Of a stretch of DNA of 64,000 nt, positions 49,864 to 63,541 are shown piece by piece (position 1 is the first letter of the stretch; each line of letters begins with the position of its first letter). Below the pieces are notes generated by a model. The model was not told where the DNA came from and did not search any database. It saw nothing but the letters and a program-made list of their open reading frames with translations. Source of the stretch: a virus (taxonomy: Duplodnaviria; Heunggongvirae; Uroviricota; Caudoviricetes). Location: the IMG/VR virus record IMGVR_UViG_2648501839_000008, one strand, 5' to 3'. The translations under genes and the position numbers were made by a program.

Positions 49864-50130
49864 TTACATCACCAGTAACTTCGCTTTGGCTCGACCTAAA
49901 GTGGTTAACCCAAGAGTTCGGCGGTGATAGCGATTGTCACTGCGTTGGCGCGTATGCCCTTTCTCCACAAGCCCCTTTTTTATCAGAGCGCGAATTGAGA
50001 ACTGGATACTTTGCTTGGTTGTCTTGTACGGCAAAACTTCAAGCAATTCGTCCAGATCAAGTAGATGACCTCGCTCATAACCGAGATTGAGCGTTTTGAT
50101 GATGTCCTTTTGTTTATCGGTTAACGTCAT
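49864..50130 (-). CDS. Small winged-helix-type DNA-binding protein, tentative
   Basis: 88 aa basic protein. Confidence 0.4.
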   Translation of the reverse strand: MTLTDKQKDIIKTLNLGYERGHLLDLDELLEVLPYKTTKQSIQFSIRALIKKGLVEKGHTRQRSDNRYHRRTLGLTTLGRAKAKLLVM

Positions 50131-50139
50131 GGCAAATCC

Positions 50140-51030
50140 TTATGCCGGTAAAGCAATTTCTAACGGTTTATCCAAAGGTTGTTTGTCGAATGCCAGCAGT
50201 GGCAGCGTGTCAGGCAGTCGACGACCAAAGTCAGGGTTTCGATACACCCCATACAACGGAGACGTAAAGCTCAGGTTGTGAATGTCCTTGAGCAACTTCA
50301 CAATGCTGGCCTCGTCCACCAGACTGTCGGCAATGTCCTGAATCGTCGTGCCACGATTCCGCCCAGCTTTTGCCAGGGAACTGTTCTTGTGGTAGTCCGC
50401 CACCAGATCACGCAGTGCACGGCGACGACGAGACTCGCTCATTGCGAACAACTCTTTGACGATCGCCTCGTTATCACCCGGGTCGGAACGGAAATGGCGC
50501 TGGAATACACGCAGTGCACTTTCATAGCTCTTCGGTCGCTCAGGGCGGATGAACTTAAACCCTGCTTTCATGGCGAAGGGATTGTATTTACTCATCGAGG
50601 ACTGGATCTCAATGATTGGCCGGTCATGCATCCTGCTAACCAGGTTAATCATTCGATAAGAGACGCCTACGCCACGATACTGAGTATCCACAACTGAGCG
50701 ACTGATCACCGCAAAGTTGTTATTCACGTACCGACCCCAGTACTGGTTAGCCACGGTGGTATTAGTGGTTGGTTTCAACTTAGGAAACATGCGGTGGCGA
50801 GGTGCCAACAGTAGTTTCGGGTAAGCCATAACCACGACGCCCACCAGACGGTCATCAAGTTCGCAGCGATAGTAAGTTGGCGCGAAAGGTTTGCCGTCTG
50901 TTTTGTAGTGAAGCGACTTAAGAGCGTGCCAGTCCTCTACAGTTCCCTTTGTAACAGTCATTCGCTCCAGAAAGTCCAGATGACGCGGAAACTCTTCAGG
51001 GCGGTAGCGTTTAATGATGATGTCCGTCAT
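50140..51030 (-). CDS. GNAT-like acetyltransferase-fold protein with C-terminal extension, tentative
   Basis: VVDTQYRGVGVSYRMIN resembles GNAT acetyl-CoA-binding motif A; 4-nt overlap with upstream ATPase gene. Confidence 0.4.
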   Translation of the reverse strand: MTDIIIKRYRPEEFPRHLDFLERMTVTKGTVEDWHALKSLHYKTDGKPFAPTYYRCELDDRLVGVVVMAYPKLLLAPRHRMFPKLKPTTNTTVANQYWGRYVNNNFAVISRSVVDTQYRGVGVSYRMINLVSRMHDRPIIEIQSSMSKYNPFAMKAGFKFIRPERPKSYESALRVFQRHFRSDPGDNEAIVKELFAMSESRRRRALRDLVADYHKNSSLAKAGRNRGTTIQDIADSLVDEASIVKLLKDIHNLSFTSPLYGVYRNPDFGRRLPDTLPLLAFDKQPLDKPLEIALPA

Positions 51031-51692
51031 GAATGGACCTCATCGTGACTACCATTGTGATATTCCACCTTCACGCGTTCTTTGTAGTGCTTGGTGATCT
51101 GCATATCCGGGCGCAGCGCGTTCTTCAGGTCTTCGTGAGTCGTCGCCACCATTACCGTCGCACCAACCTTTCGAGCGGCACGCTGGAGGTTAGACGCCAC
51201 AACCTGAGCGGTTACACGGTCGAGAACAGCGCCGAACTCGTCAGCAGCCCACACTTTAGCGCCTGACTCAATCAGTTTGGCAATCTTGAGACGATATTTC
51301 TGGCCGTCTGACATTTCAGAAGGCTTGCGAACAAACAGATATGCATCGTTCAGACCAGCCATAGATAACAACCCAAGCGCATCACTGGTCGTTTTGCCCA
51401 ACTGATCGATGACGTTAACCTCATTATCGAAGGTAAAATCATCGATGGAGGCTACAGACAGCCCTTCATCCTTCATCTGTCGTTGCAACTCGCGCAGCAC
51501 AACGGATTTGCCGGAACCGGATTGGCCGGTGATGTACACCACATCGCCCTGCTTCACTTCCAGCTCCAGATTGTCGTAAAGCGTCCACTCTTTTTCGTCC
51601 AGGCCAAGCCCGAACGACTCAGCGATTTCCAACGTGCGCGTGGTTTTATTTACGCGTGTCTGAAACGATACGTTGATGATGTATTTGCTCAT
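51027..51692 (-). CDS. Compact ABC/SMC-type ATPase
   Basis: Walker A ITGQSGSGKS; signature-like SDGQKYR; Walker B VWAADEFGAVLD; H-loop-like TTHE; 221 aa. Confidence 0.6.
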   Translation of the reverse strand: MSKYIINVSFQTRVNKTTRTLEIAESFGLGLDEKEWTLYDNLELEVKQGDVVYITGQSGSGKSVVLRELQRQMKDEGLSVASIDDFTFDNEVNVIDQLGKTTSDALGLLSMAGLNDAYLFVRKPSEMSDGQKYRLKIAKLIESGAKVWAADEFGAVLDRVTAQVVASNLQRAARKVGATVMVATTHEDLKNALRPDMQITKHYKERVKVEYHNGSHDEVHS

Positions 51693-52390
51693 GCAGCCAT
51701 CTCCCCGGAAGAGATCTTCTCCGCATATGCCACAAATGCGTCTACCCCGCTTTCTCCCGTCATTTCTTCCATGTGGGCAAGCAAATCACCAACAACAATG
51801 GCAGAGCCAGCAGGGAGCGTTTTAAAGCCCAATACGTCGACAACACGTACTTCTTCCGCTGCAACTTCACGACTGATCTCGGTGTGTTCATCCTTCTGTC
51901 GTTTAGTTTCTTCGCCAAGATCGATAACTAGCGAGTCGGTGTCCATTTCTTCTGTCATACTGCCAACGAGAACATTCAACTCACGCTCTTCAAAGCCGAA
52001 AACCTCGATATCGTCCAGAACAAGCGACTCAAGCTCTTTCTGTAGCTTAATTGCATCGTAATCAATGCTGGCAAGTCGGTTATCTTCAAGGCGCTTCGCA
52101 CGAACCTCGTCATCACTGAGATCATCGCGAACAATAACCGGTACGCGCTCAAGTCCAGCAAAAATTGCAGCCTCACGGCGGCCGTGGCCAGTAATAATTA
52201 CGTCGTTCTTATCGACCGTAATTGGCTGGTCAAATCCGCGCTTTTTAATGGCTGCGGCTAGATCTCGGATCTGCTGTTCATCATGCTTTTTGGCATTCAT
52301 CTCATAGGGAATAAGATCTGCCGGGTCGCGATATACGATTTCAAACTTTTTGGTCATTACATACGCTCCTTGTAGTAGTCGACCAGCCAC
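51689..52390 (-). CDS. ParB/Sulfiredoxin-fold domain protein (second copy)
   Basis: ParB N-terminal-domain-like motif VIITGHGRREAA; acidic C-terminus. Confidence 0.6.
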   Translation of the reverse strand: MAGRLLQGAYVMTKKFEIVYRDPADLIPYEMNAKKHDEQQIRDLAAAIKKRGFDQPITVDKNDVIITGHGRREAAIFAGLERVPVIVRDDLSDDEVRAKRLEDNRLASIDYDAIKLQKELESLVLDDIEVFGFEERELNVLVGSMTEEMDTDSLVIDLGEETKRQKDEHTEISREVAAEEVRVVDVLGFKTLPAGSAIVVGDLLAHMEEMTGESGVDAFVAYAEKISSGEMAA

Positions 52391-53037
52391 ACCAGAGCCT
52401 CACCAGCGTTCTCCATTTCATTACCGGTGTTAATAGCCTGCTCTTTGATGATGTTTTTTATGGTTTCTGCAACACGATCTGACGCATCGAAAGTTACTTT
52501 GAAGCGCATGGTCTGATGTTCCGCACCCACACGTTCGGTTTTCTCTCGTTTGTCGGTATCGACAGGCTCATCACTACCACGAGACAACGCCTCCAGTGCT
52601 TCAAGGTCGATTGCCGCCTCTTTTGCTAAAACCATCGAGATTTCGTCGTCATACGGGGCGATTTCAGACAGTTGATAGTCAAGTTCTGACTGAATTTCTT
52701 CAATGAAGCGTTGCAATGCGATTTGGTCGTCTTCACCGTATCGCTCGTTGTCCACCAGTGACATCTGTTTAGCTACGACATCGCTAATTTTGCCCACAGA
52801 AAGCACCGGAACCGTTGAAATTCCTTGCTCAATAGCAGCACGCCAGCGATGTTCGCCGCCGAGGATTTCAAAAAATCCATCTTCAAGTTCACGAGCCAAA
52901 ATTGGCTTAAAAAAGCCCAATTTTTCGATAGAACCTTTCAGTTTTTCAAAATTCTGCGCACCAACCGAATTGGTGTTCCAGGTATTCGGGCGAAGGTTGG
53001 CAACATCAACCTGCAAAATCGTGATTTTTACATCCAT
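52357..53037 (-). CDS. ParB/Sulfiredoxin-fold domain protein
   Basis: ParB N-terminal-domain motif FFEILGGEHRWRAA. Confidence 0.65.
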   Translation of the reverse strand: MDVKITILQVDVANLRPNTWNTNSVGAQNFEKLKGSIEKLGFFKPILARELEDGFFEILGGEHRWRAAIEQGISTVPVLSVGKISDVVAKQMSLVDNERYGEDDQIALQRFIEEIQSELDYQLSEIAPYDDEISMVLAKEAAIDLEALEALSRGSDEPVDTDKREKTERVGAEHQTMRFKVTFDASDRVAETIKNIIKEQAINTGNEMENAGEALVWLVDYYKERM

Positions 53038-53054
53038 TTTATTGCTACAATCTA

Positions 53055-53076
53055 CTAGGTATTCACTTACTTATTA
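53055..53076. promoter_or_regulatory. O1 palindromic motif in divergent promoter region
   Basis: ctaggtattcacttacttatta between ParB-like gene start and helicase gene start. Confidence 0.35.
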
Positions 53077-53119
53077 TAATAGCCAAATAACATACAAAAG
53101 GCACTAAGGAAAGAGGTTT

Positions 53120-54679
53120 ATGACTGTTCGGATTGTATCTAACGCAGTAAATGCGCTTATTTCTGGCGCAGATGACAAGGTAAAGCAACTGGTGCAGCAA
53201 ATGTTGAGCTACGAAGTCGAGACTGGCGACTGGAAGGGCACAAGCACGATGTTCAACTGGAGTAAAAACTCGTTCCCTGCTGGCTTTGCCAAGCCTGTAG
53301 CGGCGAACTTGAACAAGGCGGGCATCAAATGTGTTCATATCCGCAAAGACAAAGCCCCGGCGCTTGGTAAACCAAATCCGGCGGTTAACCCATTCCCATA
53401 CAATCCTGATTATGCGTATCAGGATCAGACTGTGGAAACACTGGTTCGAGAGGGAATGATGATTGCGCAGATCGCTACTGGTGGCGGGAAATCTAACGTT
53501 GCCTGCAAAGCAGCTGCACGTATCGGTCGAATGACATTATTTTTAACAACCCGCTCTGTTCTGATGTTTCAAATGGCCGAAAACTTCCAGAGATCCATCG
53601 ACTACCGCGCCGAAAATGGCGAACCGTGGTTAAAAGACCAAAAGGTTGGAGTCATTGGCTCGGGTGAGTTCCAGGTATCACGACATATCAACGTCGCTAC
53701 AGTTCAAACTCTTGCAAGTTTCCTCGAAGAACCACCACGCGATGCAACACCAGATAAGAAAAGCTACCACCTCAAACGTCGGGAGTTGGTGAAACGCTTC
53801 CTTTCAAGTGTCTCTCTTCTTATTCTGGAAGAGGCGCATGAGTCTTCAGGCTCAAATTTCTATGACATCGCCAGATTATGTGTGAACGCGGACTATCGTC
53901 TGGCGCTTACAGCCACGCCGTTCATGAAGGATTCGACGGAAGCCAACATGCGCCTGATGGCGGTGGCCGGGCGAATTGAAATTAAAGTCACAGAAAAGTA
54001 CCTGATTGATCGAGGCATTCTGGCAAAGCCGTACTTCCTTTATCATAAAGTTGCCTACAAGCCAGACGAGGCCAGAATCAAGGCCGAACTTGCCAACAAA
54101 CACCTCAATTTTAGAGTTGGTATGAGCACCGCCTACCAAAAGGCTTATCAGTTGGGGATCGTGTATAATTTGGGACGTAACGAGGCCATTGTTCGCGAAG
54201 CATTGCTCTATAAGCAACATTCTCTCAATTGTATGACTCTGGTTCGTCTTAAACGCCACGGGCAAATCCTGATGGAAATGATGAAAGAGTCCGGCCTTAG
54301 AGTTGACTTCATCTATGGGGAATCTAACCAGGCGACAAGGCAAGCAAAGCTGAACAGTTTAGCGTCTGGAGAAATAGATGTTTTAATAGGCTCGACTATT
54401 CTGGATGTCGGTGTTGATGTGCCAAGCGTTGGTGCGGTCATTCTTGCTGGTGGTGGGAAAGCAGAAGTTGAAATGAGGCAGCGTGTCGGTCGTGGCTTAC
54501 GAGCCAAAAAAAATCAGGCAAACGTGTGTTTTATCACTGATTTCATTGACATTAGCAACAAATACCTGTTGTCTCACTCTTATGAGCGAAAACACATCAT
54601 CGACACCACACCTGGCTTTGCAGAAGGTGTATTGCCTATTGATGGAGCATTCGATTTTGGAGTTCTGAAACGAGATTAG
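53120..54679 (+). CDS. Superfamily 2 DNA/RNA helicase (DEAH-like)
   Basis: Walker A ATGGGKS, motif II LILEEAHES (DEAH-like), C-terminal helicase-domain-like region with arginine motif QRVGRGLR. Confidence 0.75.
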   Translation: MTVRIVSNAVNALISGADDKVKQLVQQMLSYEVETGDWKGTSTMFNWSKNSFPAGFAKPVAANLNKAGIKCVHIRKDKAPALGKPNPAVNPFPYNPDYAYQDQTVETLVREGMMIAQIATGGGKSNVACKAAARIGRMTLFLTTRSVLMFQMAENFQRSIDYRAENGEPWLKDQKVGVIGSGEFQVSRHINVATVQTLASFLEEPPRDATPDKKSYHLKRRELVKRFLSSVSLLILEEAHESSGSNFYDIARLCVNADYRLALTATPFMKDSTEANMRLMAVAGRIEIKVTEKYLIDRGILAKPYFLYHKVAYKPDEARIKAELANKHLNFRVGMSTAYQKAYQLGIVYNLGRNEAIVREALLYKQHSLNCMTLVRLKRHGQILMEMMKESGLRVDFIYGESNQATRQAKLNSLASGEIDVLIGSTILDVGVDVPSVGAVILAGGGKAEVEMRQRVGRGLRAKKNQANVCFITDFIDISNKYLLSHSYERKHIIDTTPGFAEGVLPIDGAFDFGVLKRD

Positions 54680-54681
54680 TT

Positions 54682-54960
54682 ATGAGCGAAAAGAAAACAA
54701 CTTATTGTCAGGTAGCATTGTCTGATAAGGCCAATGACAAACTTGGAAAGTTTCAAGTGAAACTAAAAGAAAAAAATATCAAAATGTCTAAGGCTGAAGT
54801 CATAAATACCATTCTGGAACAATTGACAATGGCCGACTTTGACAAGGTTATATCTTCTGTCGGGGCTTCCGCTAAGACTCGTGAGAAAATCATGCGTATC
54901 TATGAGAACTCTAATATGACAAAGGAAGATCTCGAAACGCTATTAAGCAGATTAAAATAA
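54682..54960 (+). CDS. Hypothetical small protein (possible ribbon-helix-helix DNA binding)
   Basis: 92-aa ORF immediately after helicase. Confidence 0.35.
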   Translation: MSEKKTTYCQVALSDKANDKLGKFQVKLKEKNIKMSKAEVINTILEQLTMADFDKVISSVGASAKTREKIMRIYENSNMTKEDLETLLSRLK

Positions 54961-54986
54961 TCACGCTATCAATTAGGGAGACAAAG

Positions 54987-55451
54987 ATGAAGTCTCCCAT
55001 ACTGTTCACTTTCTGTTCTAAAACTATCATGAAATACTCGCTTCTCCCTCTACTAACGTTACCAGTGTTGATGCTTACCGCGTGCCAATCACGCCCAATA
55101 TCAATCCATGACGCCAAACCAGCACCGCAGGCCAAAGTGTTCAAGTATCAAAGCGCAGCGCCAGCTACGTTGGTGGTAATGAGAGACACAGGTTTTGTAG
55201 GAGCTGGATGTGATGCTTCCATTTTCATCAACGGCGAAACTGTCGCAAAACTGGCTACAGGCGAAAAAGCGACTTTCCATTTAAATGCCGGAGAATTAAT
55301 TGTGGGTGCATCTCTTGAAGGTGCAGGTTTATGTGCTCTAAACCCCGCTCGTCAAGAGCGAGAAACGACTCTGAAGAATGGAGACACAAAAGCGTTCAGG
55401 GTGTTCACCAGCAATTCTGGTGACATCGACATTCTGCCAACAACTCTGTGA
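54987..55451 (+). CDS. Lipoprotein
   Basis: Signal peptide with lipobox LMLTAC; start may be internal Met (MKYSLL...). Confidence 0.5.
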   Translation: MKSPILFTFCSKTIMKYSLLPLLTLPVLMLTACQSRPISIHDAKPAPQAKVFKYQSAAPATLVVMRDTGFVGAGCDASIFINGETVAKLATGEKATFHLNAGELIVGASLEGAGLCALNPARQERETTLKNGDTKAFRVFTSNSGDIDILPTTL

Positions 55452-55455
55452 TGAC

Positions 55456-55980
55456 ATGACAACCAAAGATATTACCTACGGTATCCAAGCTGAACTCTGG
55501 CCGCGAGATTACACTAACGTTGAAAAACTACTGATGTTCTGGCGCAGAGAACAAATTCCTGTAAGGGTCACTCTCGAAGATGGCCAGGCGTTTTGCATGT
55601 ACGTTTATGGCCTCATGCCATCTCGTAACAAAGTTGACCTTTGCCCAGCCCCTTTTGACAAAGAAAATCGTATAAGGCTCCCACTTGAACGCATTAGTAC
55701 AATTGAATCAGGTGTGGTTGACAGTATCGCTCACGATTTCAAAGGTCGACTAACAGTTCACCCTGATTATGTCGATAATCGGCCATCACGCCGCGATTTT
55801 TTTGCAATTTGCAACCAAGCCTACAAAGCAAACAAATCTATAAGGGTGTACATGGCGGATGGCCGTGAAATTGAGGGGGTGTCAGCAGGCGCAGATGCTT
55901 GTCAGGTTACACTACGTGTCGAGAACGGTAGAAAAATAGTTGTTTTGTTCGATTGGGTTGAACGAATTTTGCCTTTTTGA
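55456..55980 (+). CDS. Hypothetical protein
   Basis: ORF-track 55378..55980 trimmed to internal ATG (MTTKDITYG...) right after lipoprotein stop. Confidence 0.4.
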   Translation: MTTKDITYGIQAELWPRDYTNVEKLLMFWRREQIPVRVTLEDGQAFCMYVYGLMPSRNKVDLCPAPFDKENRIRLPLERISTIESGVVDSIAHDFKGRLTVHPDYVDNRPSRRDFFAICNQAYKANKSIRVYMADGREIEGVSAGADACQVTLRVENGRKIVVLFDWVERILPF

Positions 55981-55983
55981 GTT

Positions 55984-56292
55984 ATGAAATCGATATTGTT
56001 ACCACCATTATTTTTACTTTGCTCAGTTGCGGCAAATGCAATGGACTATAAGCCTGTCATTCAGTCGCTGATGAATGACGTGTGCTCAACGTCTCAGAAT
56101 GTATCAGTTTGCATGTATCAATTTTCGGCAGCCGTAAAAGCAGGAAAAGCGATAGGTGAGAATGTGGAACTGTGTAAGAAAGTGGCAAATGAAGAAAGGG
56201 CAATGTTGGATTGCGAATCTAGCGAGTCATCGGCACAGTTCGTTGATGCGCTATTTGACACCAATCGTAAGGCTGTAGAGTCTGTTCAATAA
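55984..56292 (+). CDS. Small secreted protein
   Basis: Signal peptide MKSILLPPLFLLCSVAANA; 102 aa. Confidence 0.45.
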   Translation: MKSILLPPLFLLCSVAANAMDYKPVIQSLMNDVCSTSQNVSVCMYQFSAAVKAGKAIGENVELCKKVANEERAMLDCESSESSAQFVDALFDTNRKAVESVQ

Positions 56293-56304
56293 ATCTATAA
56301 GGTT

Positions 56305-56334
56305 AATAACCGGCTAAGTCCGGTTATTATTTTT
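56305..56334 (+). terminator. Rho-independent terminator
   Basis: taaccggctaagtccggtta hairpin followed by ttatttttc. Confidence 0.55.
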
Positions 56335-56576
56335 CACATCACTTCTTTATATCTACAAATCAAATAACCTAAATATATATAAGGTCTAAAGCCGCAATCG
56401 ATTATTTATTTAGGGAACACCTTCGACGATCTCGCTTTTATTTCTAGGACTTTCATCCCTGCAAAAAATTTTAAAAAAAACACTTGCAATCTTTTTTCGC
56501 GTATCGATAATTGAACTCGTCGAAAGCGAAGACGCTAACGACAATAAATTTTAAATTTACATAAGGAAAAATTATC

Positions 56577-57227
56577 ATGGCTAACATTATCATTTCTAAA
56601 AAATCCATCATTGAAGCTGCTTCCATTGTATCCGATGAACTGCGCGAAAAAGCAGATCTGGCAACTCAAACATATAACGAACATTATAAAAATGGTACGC
56701 ACACTAAAGCAGACAAAGCAAATATGCAAGCTGCGACCACTAAACTTGCTTACTTCATCAACAACGTCGTAAACGCAGTAGAAGACGAAAAATTATGCTC
56801 TGTTTTCTACTATGCGATTAAAGCAAGCAAACAAGCGCCAGAAGTATTTTTCCGTGATGCAATGACTAATAGTTATTCTCTGGAAAAACTGGTTTATCTG
56901 GTTAAATCAATTAAATCTGGTAAATGCGTTTATTCCATCGCTGATATGTCAGGATCTCGTGTATTCGCTTTAATCGATATGATTAACGACGAGATCGACA
57001 CGTTCACCAATGGCGCTGTTTTCGATTTAATGAATGAAGCTAAAAAAGCGTGTGAAATTAAATTGGACGCTGGCTATACTCAAGCCAACCAGTTGATCAA
57101 TCTTTGCGAACGTCTTGGACTTGTTGAAAAAGTCAAAGGAGCTGGGAGCGCGAAAGCTGGTACTCAGCAATATCGCTTCATTAAAAATGATTTCTACAAT
57201 TATTTAGCTGATGCTTTCAAAGCGTAA
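56577..57227 (+). CDS. Hypothetical protein
   Basis: 216-aa ORF preceded by AT-rich promoter-like region. Confidence 0.5.
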   Translation: MANIIISKKSIIEAASIVSDELREKADLATQTYNEHYKNGTHTKADKANMQAATTKLAYFINNVVNAVEDEKLCSVFYYAIKASKQAPEVFFRDAMTNSYSLEKLVYLVKSIKSGKCVYSIADMSGSRVFALIDMINDEIDTFTNGAVFDLMNEAKKACEIKLDAGYTQANQLINLCERLGLVEKVKGAGSAKAGTQQYRFIKNDFYNYLADAFKA

Positions 57228-57275
57228 TAAATGGAATCAAGCGCCCATAGTGGGCGCTTTAAAGGAGCTTTAAAG

Positions 57276-57479
57276 ATGGTCAGCTATGACAAGATCCGCG
57301 CGGAATATCGCGCAAAGTATCGCGCTTATAAACTGGAATTAATCGATGATTTGATCGCGCAACGCGACCAATTAAATTTTACGTTTTCTGATTTGCTTAA
57401 CAGCAAGCGAGATTGCAAGCGCAAACGTGAATACTTACGTTTAAGCGCATTAATCGGAAAACTTCAAAATTCTATTTAA
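57276..57479 (+). CDS. Hypothetical small basic protein
   Basis: Start placed at internal ATG after AAAGGAG RBS; ORF-track start 57231 overlaps an intergenic hairpin. Confidence 0.35.
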   Translation: MVSYDKIRAEYRAKYRAYKLELIDDLIAQRDQLNFTFSDLLNSKRDCKRKREYLRLSALIGKLQNSI

Positions 57480-57498
57480 TTTTTTAAGGAGCTTAATC

Positions 57499-57729
57499 AT
57501 GTTTGTTCTTATCGCTGGCGTTAACGTCCATAATGAATATTATGTTAATCGCATCGCTGGGATCGCTGGTTACGCTGGGCGCGCAGTCGAGCTTATAGAT
57601 GAAACGACGCGCAAAATTGACTTATTGAGCGACCAGGAGCGAAAAAAAGCAGACGTGAACGACGCTGATATATTTTTAATGTTAAAAGCGTTTGTAGAAA
57701 TGGGATTTAAAATCAGTTTACACAAATAA
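57499..57729 (+). CDS. Hypothetical small protein
   Basis: 76-aa ORF with AAGGAG RBS. Confidence 0.4.
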   Translation: MFVLIAGVNVHNEYYVNRIAGIAGYAGRAVELIDETTRKIDLLSDQERKKADVNDADIFLMLKAFVEMGFKISLHK

Positions 57730-57735
57730 AATCGA

Positions 57736-57758
57736 GCGCCCACTATGGGCGCTTTTTT
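57736..57758 (+). terminator. Rho-independent terminator (GCGCCCA-CTA-TGGGCGC plus T6)
   Basis: gcgcccactatgggcgctttttt; a near-identical hairpin without T-run lies at 57240-57256. Confidence 0.6.
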
Positions 57759-58047
57759 CGTTTCCAATACTCCCACCATAACGCGCCATCATTAGCGCGT
57801 TTTTTATTGTCTTTAACTCACTCCAACAACATAAAAATAAGCGCCAAAATAACGCCATAGACGCGCTTTTATATCCTTACCAGTACATACCCATTACTTA
57901 ACACATTAACGCGCTTAAAACGCGTTATATTGCGCTATAGAGTATGGTTAATCATTGGCTTTTAGTCTTGCTTTATGATCCGCGTTTATTTGTCGGCGCG
58001 GATCGGCATTTTGTTTTGTTCCGTATCCGCTCGCGTATTATGTGCGC

Positions 58048-58093
58048 GTGATTTTTCACATAATCACACCACTTAATCACGTATGTGATTATG
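58048..58093. promoter_or_regulatory. DnaA-box-like sequences and inverted repeat (TTTTTCACA; CATAATCACA...TGTGATTATG) in AT-rich region
   Basis: tttttcaca matches DnaA-box consensus TTWTNCACA; read directly. Confidence 0.3.
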
Positions 58094-58217
58094 CTACGAA
58101 AGAAATCTGGATGTCTCAGGCGACGAAAGTCATCATAATTTTCGCCGCTCACCTGTCCGACAACCGCTGGTTGGATTCCACCAGCTTCCCGATGTTTTTT
58201 CTACATAAAGGCGAATG

Positions 58218-58333
58218 CAGCCGTTTCCCGAAAAAATCCTGGCCGTTTCCCGTCGGCTCATGAATGCTTTCCTCGCCGTTTCTGAAAATTTCCCTGCGGC
58301 AGCTGGTGGCTATAGATAAAGGGCCGTTTCTGG
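58218..58333. repeat. Iteron-like direct repeats, cluster 1 (4 copies of GCCGTTTCCC/GCCGTTTCTG)
   Basis: Copies at about 58221, 58244, 58276 and 58323. Confidence 0.45.
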
Positions 58334-58345
58334 CCCTCTTCTCAG

Positions 58346-58828
58346 TTACACGCCATCAAGGATGTGGATGCGGTTGCTTGCGTATACATTCAGCATAAAG
58401 TTAGCGCAAAACAGTTTCCATGTGTCAACGCCAGCGGTATACGTAATGTTTTTGCATTTAATCGCATTGTTGGCGATCCGCATCCCCTGCGATACTGCTT
58501 CATCGTCGGAAAATTTGAACGACGATTGAGTTTTAATCCAGAAAGAAATCTGCGTAGCGAACTCAATCAGCTTGGACTGGCAGAATCGCCCGGAGCGCAC
58601 CGGAAAGACGAACGTTCCGAATCCAGAATTTACCACATACGCTTTCTCAAATACCCGCGAGTAACGACGATTGCCAATGATGTCGCGTGCAATAATGCAT
58701 TTTTCTTGTGCTGACAGTTCTACCGTCTCATTGTCGCGCCATGCACCAAGTACTCGTTTTTCAATGTCAGAGAACGTTACAGCGATATTGCCATGTGCGG
58801 GTGCGTTTACAGTAGCGATAAAATTCAT
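58346..58828 (-). CDS. Hypothetical protein
   Basis: 160-aa ORF; O2 operator and conserved TTAATTATCG box upstream. Confidence 0.45.
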   Translation of the reverse strand: MNFIATVNAPAHGNIAVTFSDIEKRVLGAWRDNETVELSAQEKCIIARDIIGNRRYSRVFEKAYVVNSGFGTFVFPVRSGRFCQSKLIEFATQISFWIKTQSSFKFSDDEAVSQGMRIANNAIKCKNITYTAGVDTWKLFCANFMLNVYASNRIHILDGV

Positions 58829-58847
58829 GATTAATTCCTTATCGTAA

Positions 58848-58867
58848 ATAACAAATTGTTTTCTTGT
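58848..58867. promoter_or_regulatory. O2 palindromic operator
   Basis: aataacaaattgttttcttg. Confidence 0.45.
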
Positions 58868-59032
58868 TTGTGTTAATTATCGTTGTACGAATAAGGCGTC
58901 AAAGTGGAAAGTTGCGGTAGCCGGACGGGAACAGGTGGGTTTGTCGGTTGCCTGGAGGTAAGAGGTTGGTGTTTTTAGCCTGAGGGAAGCAGGATGGTCA
59001 TTTAAGGCCACCAGCATTGGTGACCTTATTCT

Positions 59033-59320
59033 TCAGTGGAGCAGACCGATGTCGATGGTATCCCCTGAATCATCCACACGGATCATCAGCATGGCAAAGG
59101 CGTTTAGTGGATAGCTTGCGTGCCATTCAGGGAAGCGGTCATCTCGCATGAAGTCGGCAATGTCGTAAACGCATCCCTCAAAGTGGAAGAATCGCGTGCT
59201 TACCTGCTCATCATAATCCACATGATCCATTTCTTGCTGTTCTGTTTCCGGCAAGTCCAGCCATGATTCGAGGAATACATTTTGTGCTTTGGTGGTAATG
59301 GTGAAATCAGTCATGAGCAT
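59033..59320 (-). CDS. Hypothetical acidic small protein
   Basis: 95-aa ORF; paralogous upstream region. Confidence 0.45.
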   Translation of the reverse strand: MLMTDFTITTKAQNVFLESWLDLPETEQQEMDHVDYDEQVSTRFFHFEGCVYDIADFMRDDRFPEWHASYPLNAFAMLMIRVDDSGDTIDIGLLH

Positions 59321-59331
59321 ATCCTCACTGC

Positions 59332-59351
59332 GTAAACATGTTGTTTTCTTG
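59332..59351. promoter_or_regulatory. O2 palindromic operator
   Basis: gtaaacatgttgttttcttg. Confidence 0.45.
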
Positions 59352-59442
59352 TTGTTGTAATTATCGCAGCGAGATAAAGGCAGAAAACAAATTGTTATCG
59401 GGCATAAGAAAATGGCGCGGTTTACGCGCCATTCAAAGAGGA

Positions 59443-59838
59443 TTAAGCGAATACGCTTTCAGGGATTAAGGTGCCGGCAGGAATGCCAGAGGTAATGCGC
59501 AGACCGTACTGGCCAATCCAGGTGGTGCTGGTGTTCAGGCTGGAGGCGAATACGGTGTTAACCATATTCATCATGGTTTCAAACACCTCTTCATCAACCT
59601 GGCGGAAGTAGTTCTCGATTTTCAGCAGCAGCGGGTCAGTTGCATCGAGAATGGACTGGTATTGAGTCGCGTACTCGCCGCCGGAGGCATCACCTTTACG
59701 CACGATCGTACTGGCCTGGACTTCGGCACCAGTTTCGGTGTTGTACGTAACAACGGTGATTTTTGCCACATTCTTACCTTCGGCGGTTTCAGAGGCATAG
59801 TAAACATCAACTGTCAGTTTTTCGCGTTTAACGGTCAT
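59443..59838 (-). CDS. Hypothetical protein
   Basis: Start placed at internal Met (MTVKREKL...) with GGAGAG RBS; ORF-track start 59904 would include the O1 motif. Confidence 0.45.
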   Translation of the reverse strand: MTVKREKLTVDVYYASETAEGKNVAKITVVTYNTETGAEVQASTIVRKGDASGGEYATQYQSILDATDPLLLKIENYFRQVDEEVFETMMNMVNTVFASSLNTSTTWIGQYGLRITSGIPAGTLIPESVFA

Positions 59839-59964
59839 TTCACTCTCCGTAGTGTATTGGTTATTTTTATATTCTATGATCGTAAGTATGTACTTACAAT
59901 ACAAAAAAGCCCCGTAAGGATGGCGGGGCTGTCGTACTGTCGACTAATTACCACTTGCACATTA

Positions 59965-60276
59965 TCAGGCTATTGCCATCACTGATGCTCTCTGAATTTC
60001 TTGCTGGGCCACGCGGTTAACTTCCATCAAGGCCAGTTCGAGCTGATGTTCCGGCCACATTCTTTGAAATGCCACCCATCCTTTTCCACGCTGGCGACGA
60101 ACATTCATTACATAACGAGTAAAGGTGTTTTTATCGAAAGACACCGCTGTTTCACGGAACAGACGAATAGAAGTTCCATTGGCAACGATGTCTAGCAAAG
60201 TTAATTGAGCAACCAGTGCAGGCTTCTCTTTTCTCTTCTGGTCTTTGTCCAGACCAAGAACCAATGATTTTTTCAT
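59965..60276 (-). CDS. Hypothetical small basic protein
   Basis: Start at MKKSLVLG with GGAG RBS; O2 operator just upstream. Confidence 0.4.
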   Translation of the reverse strand: MKKSLVLGLDKDQKRKEKPALVAQLTLLDIVANGTSIRLFRETAVSFDKNTFTRYVMNVRRQRGKGWVAFQRMWPEHQLELALMEVNRVAQQEIQRASVMAIA

Positions 60277-60285
60277 CACAACTCC

Positions 60286-60304
60286 GTAAACAACTTGTTT
60301 TCTC
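60286..60304. promoter_or_regulatory. O2 palindromic operator
   Basis: gtaaacaacttgttttctc. Confidence 0.45.
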
Positions 60305-60429
60305 AATGGCGTAAATAATACCAGTAAGAAAACGGCTACAAAGCATAATGATCAGGTGCATGATCGATATGCAGGTTCCTCCCAGCGGCTATAGAGAAAT
60401 TAAGCCAGCAATGCTGGCTTTGGTTGGGA

Positions 60430-60780
60430 TTACGCGAATACCTCAAGAAACTCCTGAACGTCCCAATGCTGGACGAGGTGAAGATAGACCTTAGAAATCA
60501 CGTCATTTTCGCTATCGCATGTGAAGTAGTACTTCTGGCTGCGGTTGTATGTGTCCACACAAAATTCGCTCATATCCATAAAGTCAGCATCTTCACCCAT
60601 GTCGCAAATCATCAAAGCAGGTGCGTCATCACGAGTCATCAGCTCAAGCACCCACCGCGAATTGATCAGAGTGGAAGACCAACCTTCTAACTCATAAAAC
60701 TGATCAAACTCTTTTTGAGTTAATTTCTTGATTTGGTTGATGTCGATATTTGCAAACATAAAGCAATCCTTAAACAACAT
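60430..60780 (-). CDS. Hypothetical acidic small protein
   Basis: 116-aa ORF, strongly acidic. Confidence 0.45.
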   Translation of the reverse strand: MLFKDCFMFANIDINQIKKLTQKEFDQFYELEGWSSTLINSRWVLELMTRDDAPALMICDMGEDADFMDMSEFCVDTYNRSQKYYFTCDSENDVISKVYLHLVQHWDVQEFLEVFA

Positions 60781-60789
60781 GTTTTCTTG
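60770..60789. promoter_or_regulatory. O2 palindromic operator
   Basis: ttaaacaacatgttttcttg. Confidence 0.45.
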
Positions 60790-61109
60790 ATGGTGTTATT
60801 ATCGCAATAACGCACAGGCGAAAAAGGATTTTATTCCGGTGAATGTGGTTTTGGCAGTGAGTTTTCAGGTTCAGTACCGAGTACACTTTTTACATTATTC
60901 TGATTTAGTGGCTGGTGGGCAGAATAATCCTCTCCCCGAAAACCTACTGAAATCGATTGTGACCCGTTGGCTGTCTGGCACAATTACGCTGTAGCTGGGC
61001 ATTCAGAGGGAATCCAGCGGTAAGCAAGTCCGCCTACGTGAGCGCCTCTCTTCTTCCCGCACATTACAGGTGGGTAGCCGCAACTCTCCCTCTCGCTATA
61101 CCGGTACGC

Positions 61110-61246
61110 CACCTTTCCTGAACCGGCATCGAGCCTTCTCCCGAAATCCACACAGGCAACTCGACCGTTTCCCTGAAAACCTCCAGCCGTTCCCCGAAGG
61201 CAACCCAGCCGTTTCTGTAGCGGGATGCAGCCTTTTCCCTGTATGG
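61110..61246. repeat. Iteron-like direct repeats, cluster 2 (about 6 copies of AGCCGTTTCCC-GAA-type unit at 22-25 bp spacing)
   Basis: cacctttcctgaacc, agccttctcccgaaatcc, cgaccgtttccctgaaaacc, cagccgttccccgaagg, cagccgtttctgtagcg, cagccttttccctgtatgg. Confidence 0.45.
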
Positions 61247-61379
61247 ACCGAAGGCTGACCGTAGGGGTGTTACGGGGGATAAAATCAGGAGTTGAATAAA
61301 TACGAAAAAGGAGGCGACACCCCTCCTTCCCTCCCCACTTATACATACCTGGCTTCTTCGCTATGCATGTTGTGTTTTA

Positions 61380-62300
61380 TCTGTCTCAACCTCTCTATAG
61401 GCGTTAATGCTCACTCCTTCCAGAATGTTCTATACGGCGACTATTTCTGTTGGTGAATTGGGTGTGTTGTTTTCTCTGTCGGTGTATGTGGTTTCGTTCG
61501 TTTTGCGGTGGTTCTTCTATGGGGTGTTCTCGTCGTTTTGGTGATTGTTCTTCTCCATGTATGGAGTAATGGCAGGTGGGCGAATCCTTTCGTTATTGTG
61601 TTTGAGTTGTTTGTCTGGAGTGTGTGAAGGGCTTTTGTAGTTATTCGTGTATTGGGTAATGGCGTTTCCCGTGATTGTTATGTTTCGTGTCTTTTGGGAT
61701 TGAGAGAATCCTTGCGGTTACAGGCTTCGTTGGGTTTTCAGTGATTCTGGTGTTTCTTCGCTGTTTGGGGAATGGCGTGTCGTGGGTATCGCGCGTATGA
61801 ATGTTTTCGGATTGCCTGTGAAAGTTAGGTTGGCTGTCCGGTAGCCTGGGGAGAAGAGGTGGGTCTTTTCGGTAGCCTGCCATAAAGAGGTTGGTTGTTT
61901 TGGGGAATGGCATGTGTGTTATTTAGTTGTTTTGTTATAGCTGAAAATAAGTTGTTTATATAGTTATGTAACGCAATGGGAGTGATTTTGAGCGTGTGTT
62001 TTTTCTTGGTAGTGTGTTGGGTCGTCTGTGGTGAAAATTGGACGCTGTGGCGCTGTCTGCTGCGTAGAATTACGGGTATAAGAAGTGATGTGTGAATACG
62101 TCAATTTTTTAGACCAAATCGGGTGAAAGCGTTGACGTTTCGTTGATCTGTTATTTAGTTGTTTTCTTATTGGTATAAACAACGTTAACCTATTGATATT
62201 TAAAGGTGTGATTGCAGGTATGGAAGAAGAGTAGTGGCGATCAACGGATTCTTATAGAAAAGAATCAAATTGTGACCGCCATTATCAACTGATTGATTAA
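61380..62300. other. ORF-free, strongly GT-skewed region with imperfect repeats
   Basis: No ORF of 60 aa or more on either strand; repeated GGGTAATGGCG-like and GGTAGCCTGGGGAGAAGAGGTGGG-like units. Confidence 0.4.
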
Positions 62301-62311
62301 GCTAATTACAC

Positions 62312-63541
62312 TCAAACATCCCCGTTCTTAATCCACTGCCTGACTTGCTCGTCTTGTGCGACTTCTTTCTCATGTTTGGCAATATACAAGTCTGGCAATA
62401 GGGGTGGAGCGAATTCAGGCTCTGTCGCACGCCACTTTTCATATGCGTCACGCATGGATTTCTCAACATTCCAATGCTCCAACTCTTGGTATTCAATCGG
62501 CCAGTTATCCTGCAATCTCTTCACTGCATTAGCCAGGTCGTATCGGAAGTAAGGATTAAGACCAATGAAATTACCAGCCAGCATGTCATCAACCTCCTTC
62601 ACTCTGGCAATCTTAGAAAACTTACCAATAGCAATGTTGAGGTCCCAATCTGACACGAACAACAAAAGTGCTGCAAATGCCAGAAACTTAGCTTCCCCGT
62701 ATGCTCTGTCGCTAACCGTTTTTGTCTGAAACTCAATGTAATTGCCCATCACAAAACTAGTAAGCTTACAGGTATTACTTATCTCGTCCTCCAAATGCGA
62801 TGGATCGAGAATTGTGCGGTCACGATTATTGTTTATGTGTTCTAAGATTACAGCAATGTCTCTATGTGAGACTGAAATTTCACGCAATTGCTGGAGAGTC
62901 TTGATGTGAACTCTTAGCACCTCTTTGTCAATCGCACGCTTCCAAGAAAAACCAGGCACAGTAACCTGAATGGGCGCGAAAGGTAGAATATCAGGAGTTG
63001 TCCATGCTAGATATGCATCACGTAACCCACTAATATAATAAAGCCAGTCTAAATGCTCGCTTTCTAACCATATTTCAAATGTGGAATCCTTTCGCTTATT
63101 GAAGAACCATTCCCTCATCTGCCACATTTTTTCTTGAGTAAATATCCCTTCCTGTATGCCGGCACAGACCAGCTTTCGTATTACCTGCGAATACTTTGTT
63201 CGATCTTTTGTGAATGAGACAAGGTGCTGCTTCACCTCAGATGTTAGTCTATCTCCATAGAAATCACATGATGGATGATGGCCTTGACCATCTTCACCGG
63301 TAAATCTGAAATGCGCCTTCTTGTGATAGCCACCATTCCTAGTGGCTCTAACGAACGAACCACCTCCAACTTTGCAAATGGGGCAGATGATATCGTCACG
63401 GGCAATAGCATGAACCGAGCTGTCATCTAAATTCTTTAGCGCCAAGTACTGCTCAGGATCGACTTCTTTTTGTAACGATTTTGAAAAAGCGGTATCAGTC
63501 ATTCCAAGCTCCGAGCAAGGGGTTATTTGTTCAATTATCAT
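62312..63541 (-). CDS. Hypothetical protein with Cys/His zinc-binding-like motif
   Basis: 409-aa ORF; CPICKVGGGSF...HKKAHFRF...HHPSCDFY. Confidence 0.5.
   Translation of the reverse strand: MIIEQITPCSELGMTDTAFSKSLQKEVDPEQYLALKNLDDSSVHAIARDDIICPICKVGGGSFVRATRNGGYHKKAHFRFTGEDGQGHHPSCDFYGDRLTSEVKQHLVSFTKDRTKYSQVIRKLVCAGIQEGIFTQEKMWQMREWFFNKRKDSTFEIWLESEHLDWLYYISGLRDAYLAWTTPDILPFAPIQVTVPGFSWKRAIDKEVLRVHIKTLQQLREISVSHRDIAVILEHINNNRDRTILDPSHLEDEISNTCKLTSFVMGNYIEFQTKTVSDRAYGEAKFLAFAALLLFVSDWDLNIAIGKFSKIARVKEVDDMLAGNFIGLNPYFRYDLANAVKRLQDNWPIEYQELEHWNVEKSMRDAYEKWRATEPEFAPPLLPDLYIAKHEKEVAQDEQVRQWIKNGDV

Follow-up and report, generated by a model that had tools for sequence, protein, structure and literature searches.

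The DNA analysed here, a 64,000-nucleotide stretch of the Caudoviricetes record IMGVR_UViG_2648501839_000008 (hereafter the window), is identified by sequence matches of positions 53000-58200 as part of an Escherichia coli phage-plasmid of the SSU5 supergroup. Between positions 56300 and 58345 it carries a segment that we read, with somewhat more confidence than doubt, as a core and separately regulated transcription unit of this supergroup, with a termination and boundary zone behind it. The unit is separate in that it has its own conserved promoter and its own terminator-like hairpins. Its components, with the elements that bound or follow it, are these:

56400..56576, plus strand: control region, delimited by a promoter scan and by an alignment of nine relatives with long invariant blocks
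56577..57227, plus strand: gene for a 216-residue ORFan protein (phrog_1513), predicted to comprise an N-terminal helical bundle and a C-terminal winged helix
57239..57259, no strand assigned: hairpin copy 1, AAGCGCCCA-TAG-TGGGCGCTT, followed by TTTAAAGGAG, the ribosome-binding site (RBS) of the next gene, without a T-run
57276..57479, plus strand: cassette gene A, 67 residues (phrog_6145), product basic, with predicted helices and a YRAKYRAY repeat for which CGC-GCN codon pairs are used
57499..57729, plus strand: cassette gene B, 76 residues (phrog_1585), with an IAGIAGYAG repeat; homologue CYRAN_112
57734..57760, no strand assigned: hairpin copy 2, GAGCGCCCA-CTA-TGGGCGCTT, stem-loop at 57734-57754 followed by six T residues
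57780..57807, plus strand: hairpin B, AACGCGC...GCGCGTT, stem-loop at 57780-57801 followed by six T residues; putative second tandem terminator
57835..58055, no strand assigned: GC-clamped hairpins in AT-rich DNA (57840-57856, minus; 57907-57927; 57976-58005, plus; 58032-48, plus)
58057..58120, no strand assigned: semi-conserved block with the inverted repeat CATAATCACA / TGTGATTATG, then GAAAGAAATCTGGATG
58200..58336, plus strand: element E1, TTTCTACATAAAGGCGA and then four GCCGTTTC repeats at 58220, 58242, 58275 and 58323
58346..58828, minus strand: convergent gene for a 160-residue protein (phrog_1641), last of five small minus-strand genes, bounding the 616-nt intergenic region
61100..61330, plus strand: element E2, (G/A)CCGTT(T/C)C(C)C repeats (61100-61260; family D3), then a minus-strand terminator-like hairpin

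The control region is poor in G and C (GC 0.31). Its sigma-70 promoter, whose -35 hexamer TTGCAA (56484-56489) and -10 hexamer GATAAT (56506-56511) are separated by a 16-nt spacer and conserved in nine relatives, is accompanied by TTATTT(A/C)(T)AGG words that recur in the region, by an A/T tract (56461-56480) and by a conserved 5' untranslated region. The gene downstream encodes a 216-residue protein that is predicted to adopt a winged helix-turn-helix fold and, on the strength of that modelled fold, to bind DNA. Its relatives are confined to the phage-plasmid family, neither Pfam nor NCBIfam gave a match, and the best sequence match in PDB had E = 0.75. The N-terminal helical domain of 140 residues showed no significant structural match, and a Foldseek search against viral structures recovered for this protein generic small winged helix-turn-helix proteins only, none of them at E <= 0.001.

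A first-pass annotation of the sequence had suggested a regulatory function for the CGCG-rich part of this segment and had named transcriptome timing, early versus late, as a check. Its regulation indeed differs from that of the helicase block preceding it at 53120-56334, as seen in RNA sequencing of E. coli LF82 lysogenic for the related phage Cyrano (PMC9928086, S1 Table; gene-level values for the nine genes of this arm, CYRAN_110-118, expressed as log2(5 + fragments per kilobase per million), floor 2.32). In overnight lysogeny broth (LB) the homologue of the 216-residue protein, CYRAN_113, stood at 2.78 and 2.32 and did not exceed 3.9 elsewhere, macrophages at 6 h excepted, and CYRAN_112, the homologue of the 76-residue protein, stood at 2.32 and 2.32. 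The helicase gene CYRAN_118 reached 5.0-5.9 in overnight LB and 5.0-8.4 when macrophages are included, while CYRAN_117, which corresponds to a 92-residue protein of the same block, gave the top values of the nine genes (6.3-7.2 in overnight LB, 6.3-9.9 over the samples), 12 times above background; the FljA-like, lipoprotein and convergent 160-residue protein genes were also clearly expressed (PMC9928086). With the values of the helicase block high and those of the operon at the floor, the former is on in the plasmid state and the CGCG-rich operon off, its good sigma-70 promoter notwithstanding. We infer that a phage repressor, or H-NS acting on the control region of 30% GC, represses the operon in lysogeny, and that its expression belongs to the lytic programme.

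By composition, the segment had been described as AT-rich at 57230-58100, full of CGCG-containing palindromes and unlike the rest of the window. Windowed statistics bear out this description, the values being the maxima of the window. In sliding 870-nt windows, CGCG occurs 17 times in 57230-58100 against a mean of 2.4 (sd 2.1), and GCGC 21 times against 3.1 (sd 2.5); the CpG observed/expected ratio of 2.0, compared with 1.06 (sd 0.18), is the highest in the 64-kb window, and the pentamers CGCGC/GCGCG number 14 in the kilobase 57001-58000 and 0-6 in each other kilobase. The excess of CGCG thus lies where it had been placed, whereas the anomaly as a whole starts earlier, at about 56300, taking in the promoter and the 216-residue gene, and ends near 58100. 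Over 56301-58100 the Karlin symmetrised dinucleotide distance from the whole window is 210 (mean 68, sd 30), again the window maximum. GC of the segment is 0.38, against 0.45 for the window. Such a distance, with a CpG observed/expected ratio of 1.8-2.0, amounts to the atypical composition expected of a genomic island.

The sources of this signature can be located individually. Nearly all non-coding CGCG and GCGC lies inside hairpin stems with A/T flanks. In the two small genes, CGCG arises where Arg CGC is followed by Ala GCN, as in YRAKYRAY; CpG is in excess in all three codon phases, and Arg is encoded almost only by CGC/CGT. The 216-residue gene deviates more mildly, its Ala-, Lys- and Asn-rich product being encoded with GCT, AAA and CGT/CGC codons. 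Confinement of CGCG to GC-clamp stems and to codon choice within AT-rich DNA accounts for the odd signature: the AT-rich/CGCG-rich composition is a by-product of GC-clamped GCGC/CGCG stems and of CGC (Arg)/GCN (Ala) codons. From a broader perspective, foreign-looking composition can arise from terminator stems and codon choice, and horizontal transfer need not be implied.

The view of the CGCG-rich part as an accessory island of separate origin finds no support in comparison of genomes. Over 53000-58200 identity is 99.5% with the E. coli plasmid pUTAK-6-1, 94-98% with Escherichia phages CMS-2020a and Cyrano, and about 80% with Salmonella phage SSU5; pHCM2 and pMT1 are further relatives, and related stretches occur in some 800 plasmids of Klebsiella, Escherichia, Enterobacter, Yersinia (pMT1), Salmonella (pHCM2), Citrobacter and Cronobacter. 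The module at 56300-58350 was found in 812 PLSDB plasmids. When it is compared genus by genus with the portal and terminase genes, the counts agree exactly for Enterobacter (91/91), Yersinia (62/62), Salmonella (49/49), Citrobacter (25/25) and Cronobacter (10/10), and differ by no more than 14 for Klebsiella, Escherichia and Shigella. Among 5426 complete E. coli genomes 240 (4.4%) carry it, always on plasmids. Rather than being patchily present, it is syntenic in pMT1, pHCM2 and the Klebsiella, Enterobacter and Cronobacter elements, which also retain the low GC (0.39-0.42) and raised CpG of its coding part; neither an integrase nor a transposase nor a tRNA gene lies within 53000-58400, where the only flanking repeat is the internal hairpin. 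Genus counts that match those of portal and terminase, together with the persistence of the signature, leave a recent foreign origin unsupported and mark the module as core. Variation among relatives does affect the number of cassettes in the operon (0-2) and some of the genes between the 92-residue and FljA-like genes of the helicase block.

The hairpin that bounds the small genes, hairpin A, has the consensus AGCGCCCA(CTA/TAG)TGGGCGCT, of which the 111-kb reference plasmid holds two copies only. In the window the palindrome GCGCCCATAGTGGGCGC at 57241-57257 recurs as its reverse complement, GCGCCCACTATGGGCGC, at 57736-57752, with 0.06 matches expected by chance. Copy 2, in which a GC-rich stem (57734-57754) is followed by six T residues, is the putative operon terminator; the same combination is found in hairpin B (57780-57801, T6) and in the hairpin that closes the helicase block (56304-56329, T5), and the earlier proposal that these gene sets end in intrinsic terminators agrees with the hairpins after each set. 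Copy 1 lacks the T tract of an intrinsic terminator, its tail being TTTAAAGG, and is likely an attenuator, a 3'-end stabiliser or a cassette boundary. Hairpins of this family, with A- or B-type stems, number two to four in each of 55 distinct relatives, and either loop, CTA or TAG, may occur at either position. The exact 19-mer was detected in 94 stretches of IMG/VR viral contigs, most of them loci that also contain the 15-mer of E1 described below.

A survey of hairpin spacing in about 65 distinct arrays revealed a limited set of arrangements. A single hairpin without a small gene was found in nine arrays; a spacing of 247 nt, corresponding to the 67-residue gene alone, in 19; one of about 271 nt, corresponding to the 76-residue gene alone, in about 10; and one of about 496 nt, which accommodates both genes as in the window, in about 12. 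Some relatives have three hairpins, spaced 270/271 nt or 247 plus 47 nt. Such quantised spacings argue that the small genes are cassettes bounded by the repeat, and the arrangement of one to three A-type copies around zero to two open reading frames (ORFs) is that of variable ORFs flanked by stem-loops, of the promoter-early stem-loop (PeSL) or moron-like type. Besides the hairpin, the repeat shares the RBS TTTAAAGGAGCTT (repeat family D7); a promoter scan of 57227-57500 gave no promoter-like site of the kind that a PeSL-like cassette would have as its own. Related records mostly list the small genes in the CGCG-rich segment as "hypothetical protein". The label "MIT family metal ion transporter (CorA)", attached to the 67-residue protein by PHROG and, as putative CorA transporter, in the SSU5 record, was set aside; the size of 67 residues and the basic, soluble-looking, non-membrane sequence indicate that it is probably a mis-annotation propagated from that record.

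Constraint on these elements is greater than on coding sequence. Among nine diverged elements, invariance extends over 23 consecutive columns in hairpin A and over 15 in E1, compared with only 28% of the third codon positions in the 216-residue gene, which shows purifying selection at the nucleotide level. The E1 15-mer, GCCGTTTCCCGAAAA, is identical in every relative examined, including those in which the 216-residue protein is only 53-63% identical. Three non-coding classes, the invariant hairpin, the control region and the GCCGTTTC arrays, are hereby marked out as under constraint stronger than that on synonymous sites. The terminator at 56304..56334, for its part, shows two single-base changes across nine aligned relatives and is otherwise invariant.

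Behind the operon, terminator-like sites are far more numerous than expected, 11 against 2.3 +/- 1.7 in shuffled sequences, and 9 against 1.6 in the pMT1 version. Hairpin B conserves its stem and varies in its loop among relatives, and in the RNAalifold comparison hairpins A and B never vary. The hairpins at 57835-58055, which are terminator-like on either strand and bear most of the non-coding CGCG, form a lineage-specific mosaic, alignment showing segments replaced between lineages. The semi-conserved block beyond them (58057-58120) contains on its minus strand TGTGATTAT, an extended -10-like sequence; of 60 distinct relatives, 35 contain ATAATCACA and 37 contain ATCTGGATG. In one Serratia-like relative (L014, 3440-5100) the 216-residue gene and its promoter are inverted in place with respect to both flanks, while E1, with one repeat, and the ATCTGGATG (ATCCAG) block stay beside the convergent minus-strand gene, which there encodes 158 residues.

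As we envisage the unit, the TTGCAA-16-GATAAT promoter, with the A/T tract upstream and set in DNA of about 30% GC that carries the conserved repeated words, would drive the gene for the presumed DNA-binding winged-helix protein and, on the same transcript, zero to two small-gene cassettes, being off in the plasmid (lysogenic) state and on in the lytic programme. Cassette boundaries and operon end would share the palindromic hairpin GCGCCCA-N3-TGGGCGC. Without a T-run, copy 1 would either attenuate within the operon or stabilise a 3' end; copy 2, which has one, would form a tandem terminator with hairpin B, and the remaining hairpins, found on both strands, would keep the unit insulated from the minus-strand genes that converge on it. 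Recombination between the hairpin/RBS repeats would lead to the quantised gain and loss of cassettes, and the GCCGTTTC arrays E1 and E2, located behind terminators, would offer DNA-level binding sites to a protein.

Several observations weigh against this reading. CYRAN_113 rises modestly, to about 5.6, in macrophages at 6 h (PMC9928086). The early lytic timing is presumed only from silence in lysogeny and the quality of the promoter. In the Serratia-like relative, neither strand shows a T-run beside the hairpin that follows the gene (GAGCGCCAGAAATGGCGCTC). Finally, the hairpin stem is fully invariant, without a compensatory change in more than 55 relatives, which exceeds the need of a plain terminator; this hints at sequence-specific recognition that our reading does not identify. 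In a speculative extension, to which we give a low probability, the 19-nt palindrome and E1/E2 would be cognate sites of the 216-residue winged-helix protein and would together constitute an undescribed control element common to all enterobacterial SSU5-supergroup phage-plasmids, pMT1 and pHCM2 included. If true, this element could be a switch for lytic development, a lytic origin, or a packaging-control site bracketing the five-gene minus-strand block.

The repeat arrays deserve separate consideration. Start-to-start spacings of the E1 repeats are 22, 33 and 48 nt, and the last repeat lies inside a hairpin (58321-58336) that forms the putative terminator of the minus-strand 160-residue gene. 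E2 follows about 2.9 kb away on the same strand, and in several viral contigs of 100-110 kb the exact E1 15-mer occurs twice, 2.9-3.4 kb apart; viewed along the minus strand, E1 and E2 each lie just downstream of a terminator hairpin. Fifty-eight distinct copies of E1 yielded essentially no consensus RNA structure (alifold energy -8.8), for which reason E1 and E2 are read as arrays acting at the DNA level, to which a protein would bind. Matches to the 15-mer in viruses outside the SSU5 group were uninformative, one (L046) lying inside coding sequence and another (L034) in an unrelated intergenic palindrome. A Rho-utilisation (rut) site was ruled out for E1, whose base composition (C 0.27, G 0.22) is not C-rich and G-poor and whose invariant 15-mer such a site would not need.

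In phage lambda, the R sites of cosB are gpNu1-binding repeats containing CGTTTCC, a core that is likewise repeated in non-coding DNA of the window. This analogy was ruled out by terminase type and by position: the matches of TerL are Terminase_6N and the structures of P74-26 and T4 gp17, the putative TerS lacks a Nu1 domain as well as any Pfam match, the terminase genes lie 8.5 kb from the repeat site, and the array is duplicated. On these four grounds the resemblance is treated as coincidental.

A distinct explanation, in our estimation improbable and yet the strongest competitor, is that the intergenic region, or E1/E2 together with 60781-62311, is a cis-acting site, whether a lytic origin with iterons to which the winged-helix protein would bind, a packaging site or a partition site. 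It draws on the four direct GCCGTTTC repeats, spaced 22/33/48 nt and invariant across the family, on the second, related array that many relatives have on the same strand at a distance of about 2.9-3.4 kb, and on the absence of consensus structure from the copies of E1, by which the element is probably DNA-acting. An adjacent AT-rich stretch and the gene next door for a protein of predicted winged-helix fold, the fold of Rep, ORC and TubR proteins, point in the same direction, and the RepB replicon, some 70 kb away, leaves the lytic origin still to be placed. Iteron arrays are familiar from plasmid and phage replicons such as P1 incC/incA and the Rep_3-type origins, with which the window shares clustered short direct repeats in non-coding DNA, a second array a few kilobases off and an adjacent winged-helix gene. 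Unlike those origins, however, it shows irregular spacing and has no recognised Rep gene adjoining: no Rep domain was found in the proteins neighbouring E1, and the RepB-family initiator lies at 12833-14047 of the record. Inspection of the intergenic region by eye revealed no good match to a DnaA box, and over its 616 nt two GATC sites against about 2.4 expected. Further points against a cis-acting site are that the DnaB-like helicase and other replication genes are situated 40 kb off, beside another AT-rich region; that a TerL of the T4/P74-26 type is paired with a putative TerS lacking a Nu1-like domain; that no phage record in the collection compared starts or ends here; and that pMT1 keeps E1 though the 1.5-kb region beyond was not found in Yersinia.

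That region, 60781-62311, is an observation in its own right. Its 1.5 kb contain no credible ORF and show a strong plus-strand skew toward G and T (A 0.19, C 0.14, G 0.29, T 0.39), with E2 at the left edge and four GGGRAATGGC-type repeats near 61565, 61655, 61770 and 61905. It is conserved in 840 plasmids of Klebsiella, Escherichia, Enterobacter and Salmonella, most matches listing no protein gene; no Yersinia record was matched, and Rfam gave no match. Possible readings are an origin, a long non-coding RNA and a binding platform. Two other low-GC patches occur in the window, at 5001-6000 (0.31) and 16001-18000 (0.30-0.34); the latter, with a GC skew of -0.30, adjoins the DnaB-like helicase gene and is a possible alternative site for the lytic origin.

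Slightly less credit is due to the idea that a minus-strand small RNA is made from the hairpin-rich DNA at about 57835-58090. It would start from TGTGATTAT (58060s) or from a CATAAT promoter-like site (58117->58088), and end at the minus-strand hairpin 57856-57840 or the bidirectional hairpin 57753-57735. Promoter-like and terminator-like sites are indeed present on the minus strand of the window, terminator-like hairpins of that strand recur in pMT1 at the equivalent position, folding of the region is far stronger than that of shuffled sequences (z -5.6 and -4.8), and convergent gene ends flank it, a setting that calls for no mRNA promoter. Against the idea, any palindrome-rich DNA is expected to fold strongly on both strands, and RNAalifold applied to the intergenic region of nine relatives (714 columns) returned a covariation term of about zero (+0.35 kcal/mol), that is, no compensatory support. 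The region is replaced mosaically between lineages, and no more than 35 of the 60 relatives have the candidate -10 word. Rfam searches of 56000-58700 and 58000-62500 produced nothing at the gathering score, even permissively, the best E value of 0.066 belonging to an unrelated Drosophila long non-coding RNA model; for the proposed RNA there was no match even at E <= 5, and RefSeq annotates no non-coding RNA here in the 240 E. coli genomes. The two pMT1 small RNAs of the Y. pestis RNA sequencing, sR082 and sR083, map near ymt and insertion sequence elements, away from this region.

Least probable of all is horizontal acquisition from an AT-rich, CpG-rich donor whose signature has been retained: the dinucleotide distance of 210 does fall in the range usual between unrelated genomes, GC is lower than in the window and the 216-residue ORFan has no relatives outside the family, but in the enterobacterial relatives the module accompanies the portal and terminase genes wherever these occur and keeps its synteny, low GC and raised CpG persist down to about 75% DNA identity, indicative of selection and not of unameliorated import, the borders have no mobility genes, tRNA or target duplications, and the non-coding CGCG sits in functional-looking stems; an acquisition predating diversification of the family is the form in which it stays conceivable.

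A core transcription unit, silent in lysogeny, is the reading we retain, and it bears on a common and medically relevant group of elements. Among the SSU5-like phage-plasmids are the Yersinia pestis plasmid pMT1 and the Salmonella Typhi plasmid pHCM2, while resistance genes are carried, according to the literature, by further members of the family. Little has been published on how they switch from the plasmid to the lytic state, and in the literature on SSU5, pHCM2, pMT1 and phage-plasmids (genomic surveys and the LF82 study) no account of the operon, the hairpin or the repeat arrays was found. What is newly marked out is a lysogeny-silent core unit with a defined promoter and a family-specific DNA-binding candidate.

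The arm in which the unit is embedded begins on the minus strand, which up to 53037 holds structural genes, terminase and two ParB-like genes; a plus-strand block follows, and then the small minus-strand genes. An SF2 helicase followed by small secreted and lipoprotein genes had been recognised there at the outset, and all are present by Pfam, PHROG and translation:

53120..54679, plus strand: superfamily 2 (SF2) helicase with ResIII, DEAD and Helicase_C domains (Pfam, E about 1e-14); phrog_16
54682-54960, plus strand: gene for a 92-residue protein (phrog_1466), homologue CYRAN_117
54987-55451, plus strand: lipoprotein gene (phrog_890), lipobox LTAC in the translation
55456-55980, plus strand: FljA-like "repressor of phase-1 flagellin" (PF03614, E = 1.5e-84)
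55984-56292, plus strand: 102-residue protein with a signal-peptide-like N-terminus, from the translation
56304..56334, plus strand: predicted intrinsic terminator closing the block, 10-bp stem (56304-56329) and then five T residues

The helicase, annotated in relatives as UvsW or as a DEAD/DEAH helicase, opens the block expressed in lysogeny. The 92-residue protein looks like a ribbon-helix-helix regulator and is a candidate repressor acting nearby. A full-length FljA-type protein on a phage-plasmid is itself an observation; it has in addition a weak Hfq-like match, its Cyrano homologue is expressed in the lysogen, and to judge from the family match it may modulate translation of host flagellin. 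PADLOC and NCBIfam searches with all genes returned only generic helicase matches.

Around the block, the stretch 49864-54679 encodes an 88-residue protein, a 296-residue protein, an ABC-type ATPase and two proteins with ParB N-terminal domains, divergent from the helicase and adjoining the terminase genes. The helicase is partially similar to PbeA and to a Dnd-associated restriction enzyme (E 1e-16 to 1e-23, far under curated cut-offs), and the gene content resembles that of modules of the DNA-phosphorothioation type. On the other side, the 160-residue gene keeps its synteny in all relatives compared, and its product gave no match in a PDB sequence search. At 58842-60801 a repeat of about 37-60 nt precedes four of the five small minus-strand genes (starts 58828, 59320, 60306 and 60780), no copy having been found upstream of the gene for a 153-residue protein (start 59904); on the minus strand it comprises a TGnGATAAT-like -10 element and, in the leader, an AACAAnTTGTT palindrome. 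The repeats look like co-regulated promoters/operators, or a translational operator. A minus-strand ORF of 409 residues at 62312-63541, with Cys/His-rich motifs and no Pfam or NCBIfam match, sits where the closest plasmid, pUTAK-6-1, has other genes, and this spot is accordingly variable. Four tRNA genes (Ser, Thr, Tyr, Asn) are found on the minus strand at 6575-7228.

Comparison with known systems places most parts of the unit. GC stems with T-runs right after stop codons, at 57734-57760 and 57780-57807, are those of tandem or bidirectional intrinsic terminators, and hairpins readable on both strands between convergent units are those of terminators at convergent gene ends. The window differs from ordinary terminators in that its stem is invariant family-wide, is reused inside the operon and in one copy lacks a T-run, and from simple ones in that 5-7 hairpins are stacked in about 320 nt, beyond the need of termination. 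PeSL cassettes of T4-type phages and the terminator-flanked morons of lambdoid phages are devices of modular shuffling; similarly, the element studied here has small ORFs between repeated stem-loops, and their number and identity differ among its close relatives. However, its repeat consists of a hairpin and an RBS without a promoter, transcription would depend on one upstream promoter, and only two protein families are involved. The 216-residue protein, compared with winged-helix proteins of the MarR/ArsR/TubR type, falls outside their sequence families in Pfam, NCBIfam and PDB. The strongly constrained non-coding elements and the ORFan protein, a candidate for DNA binding, are undescribed. 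The constituents as such belong to known kinds, namely a cluster of terminators, an array of cassettes bounded by hairpins, and a winged-helix regulator accompanied by repeat arrays.

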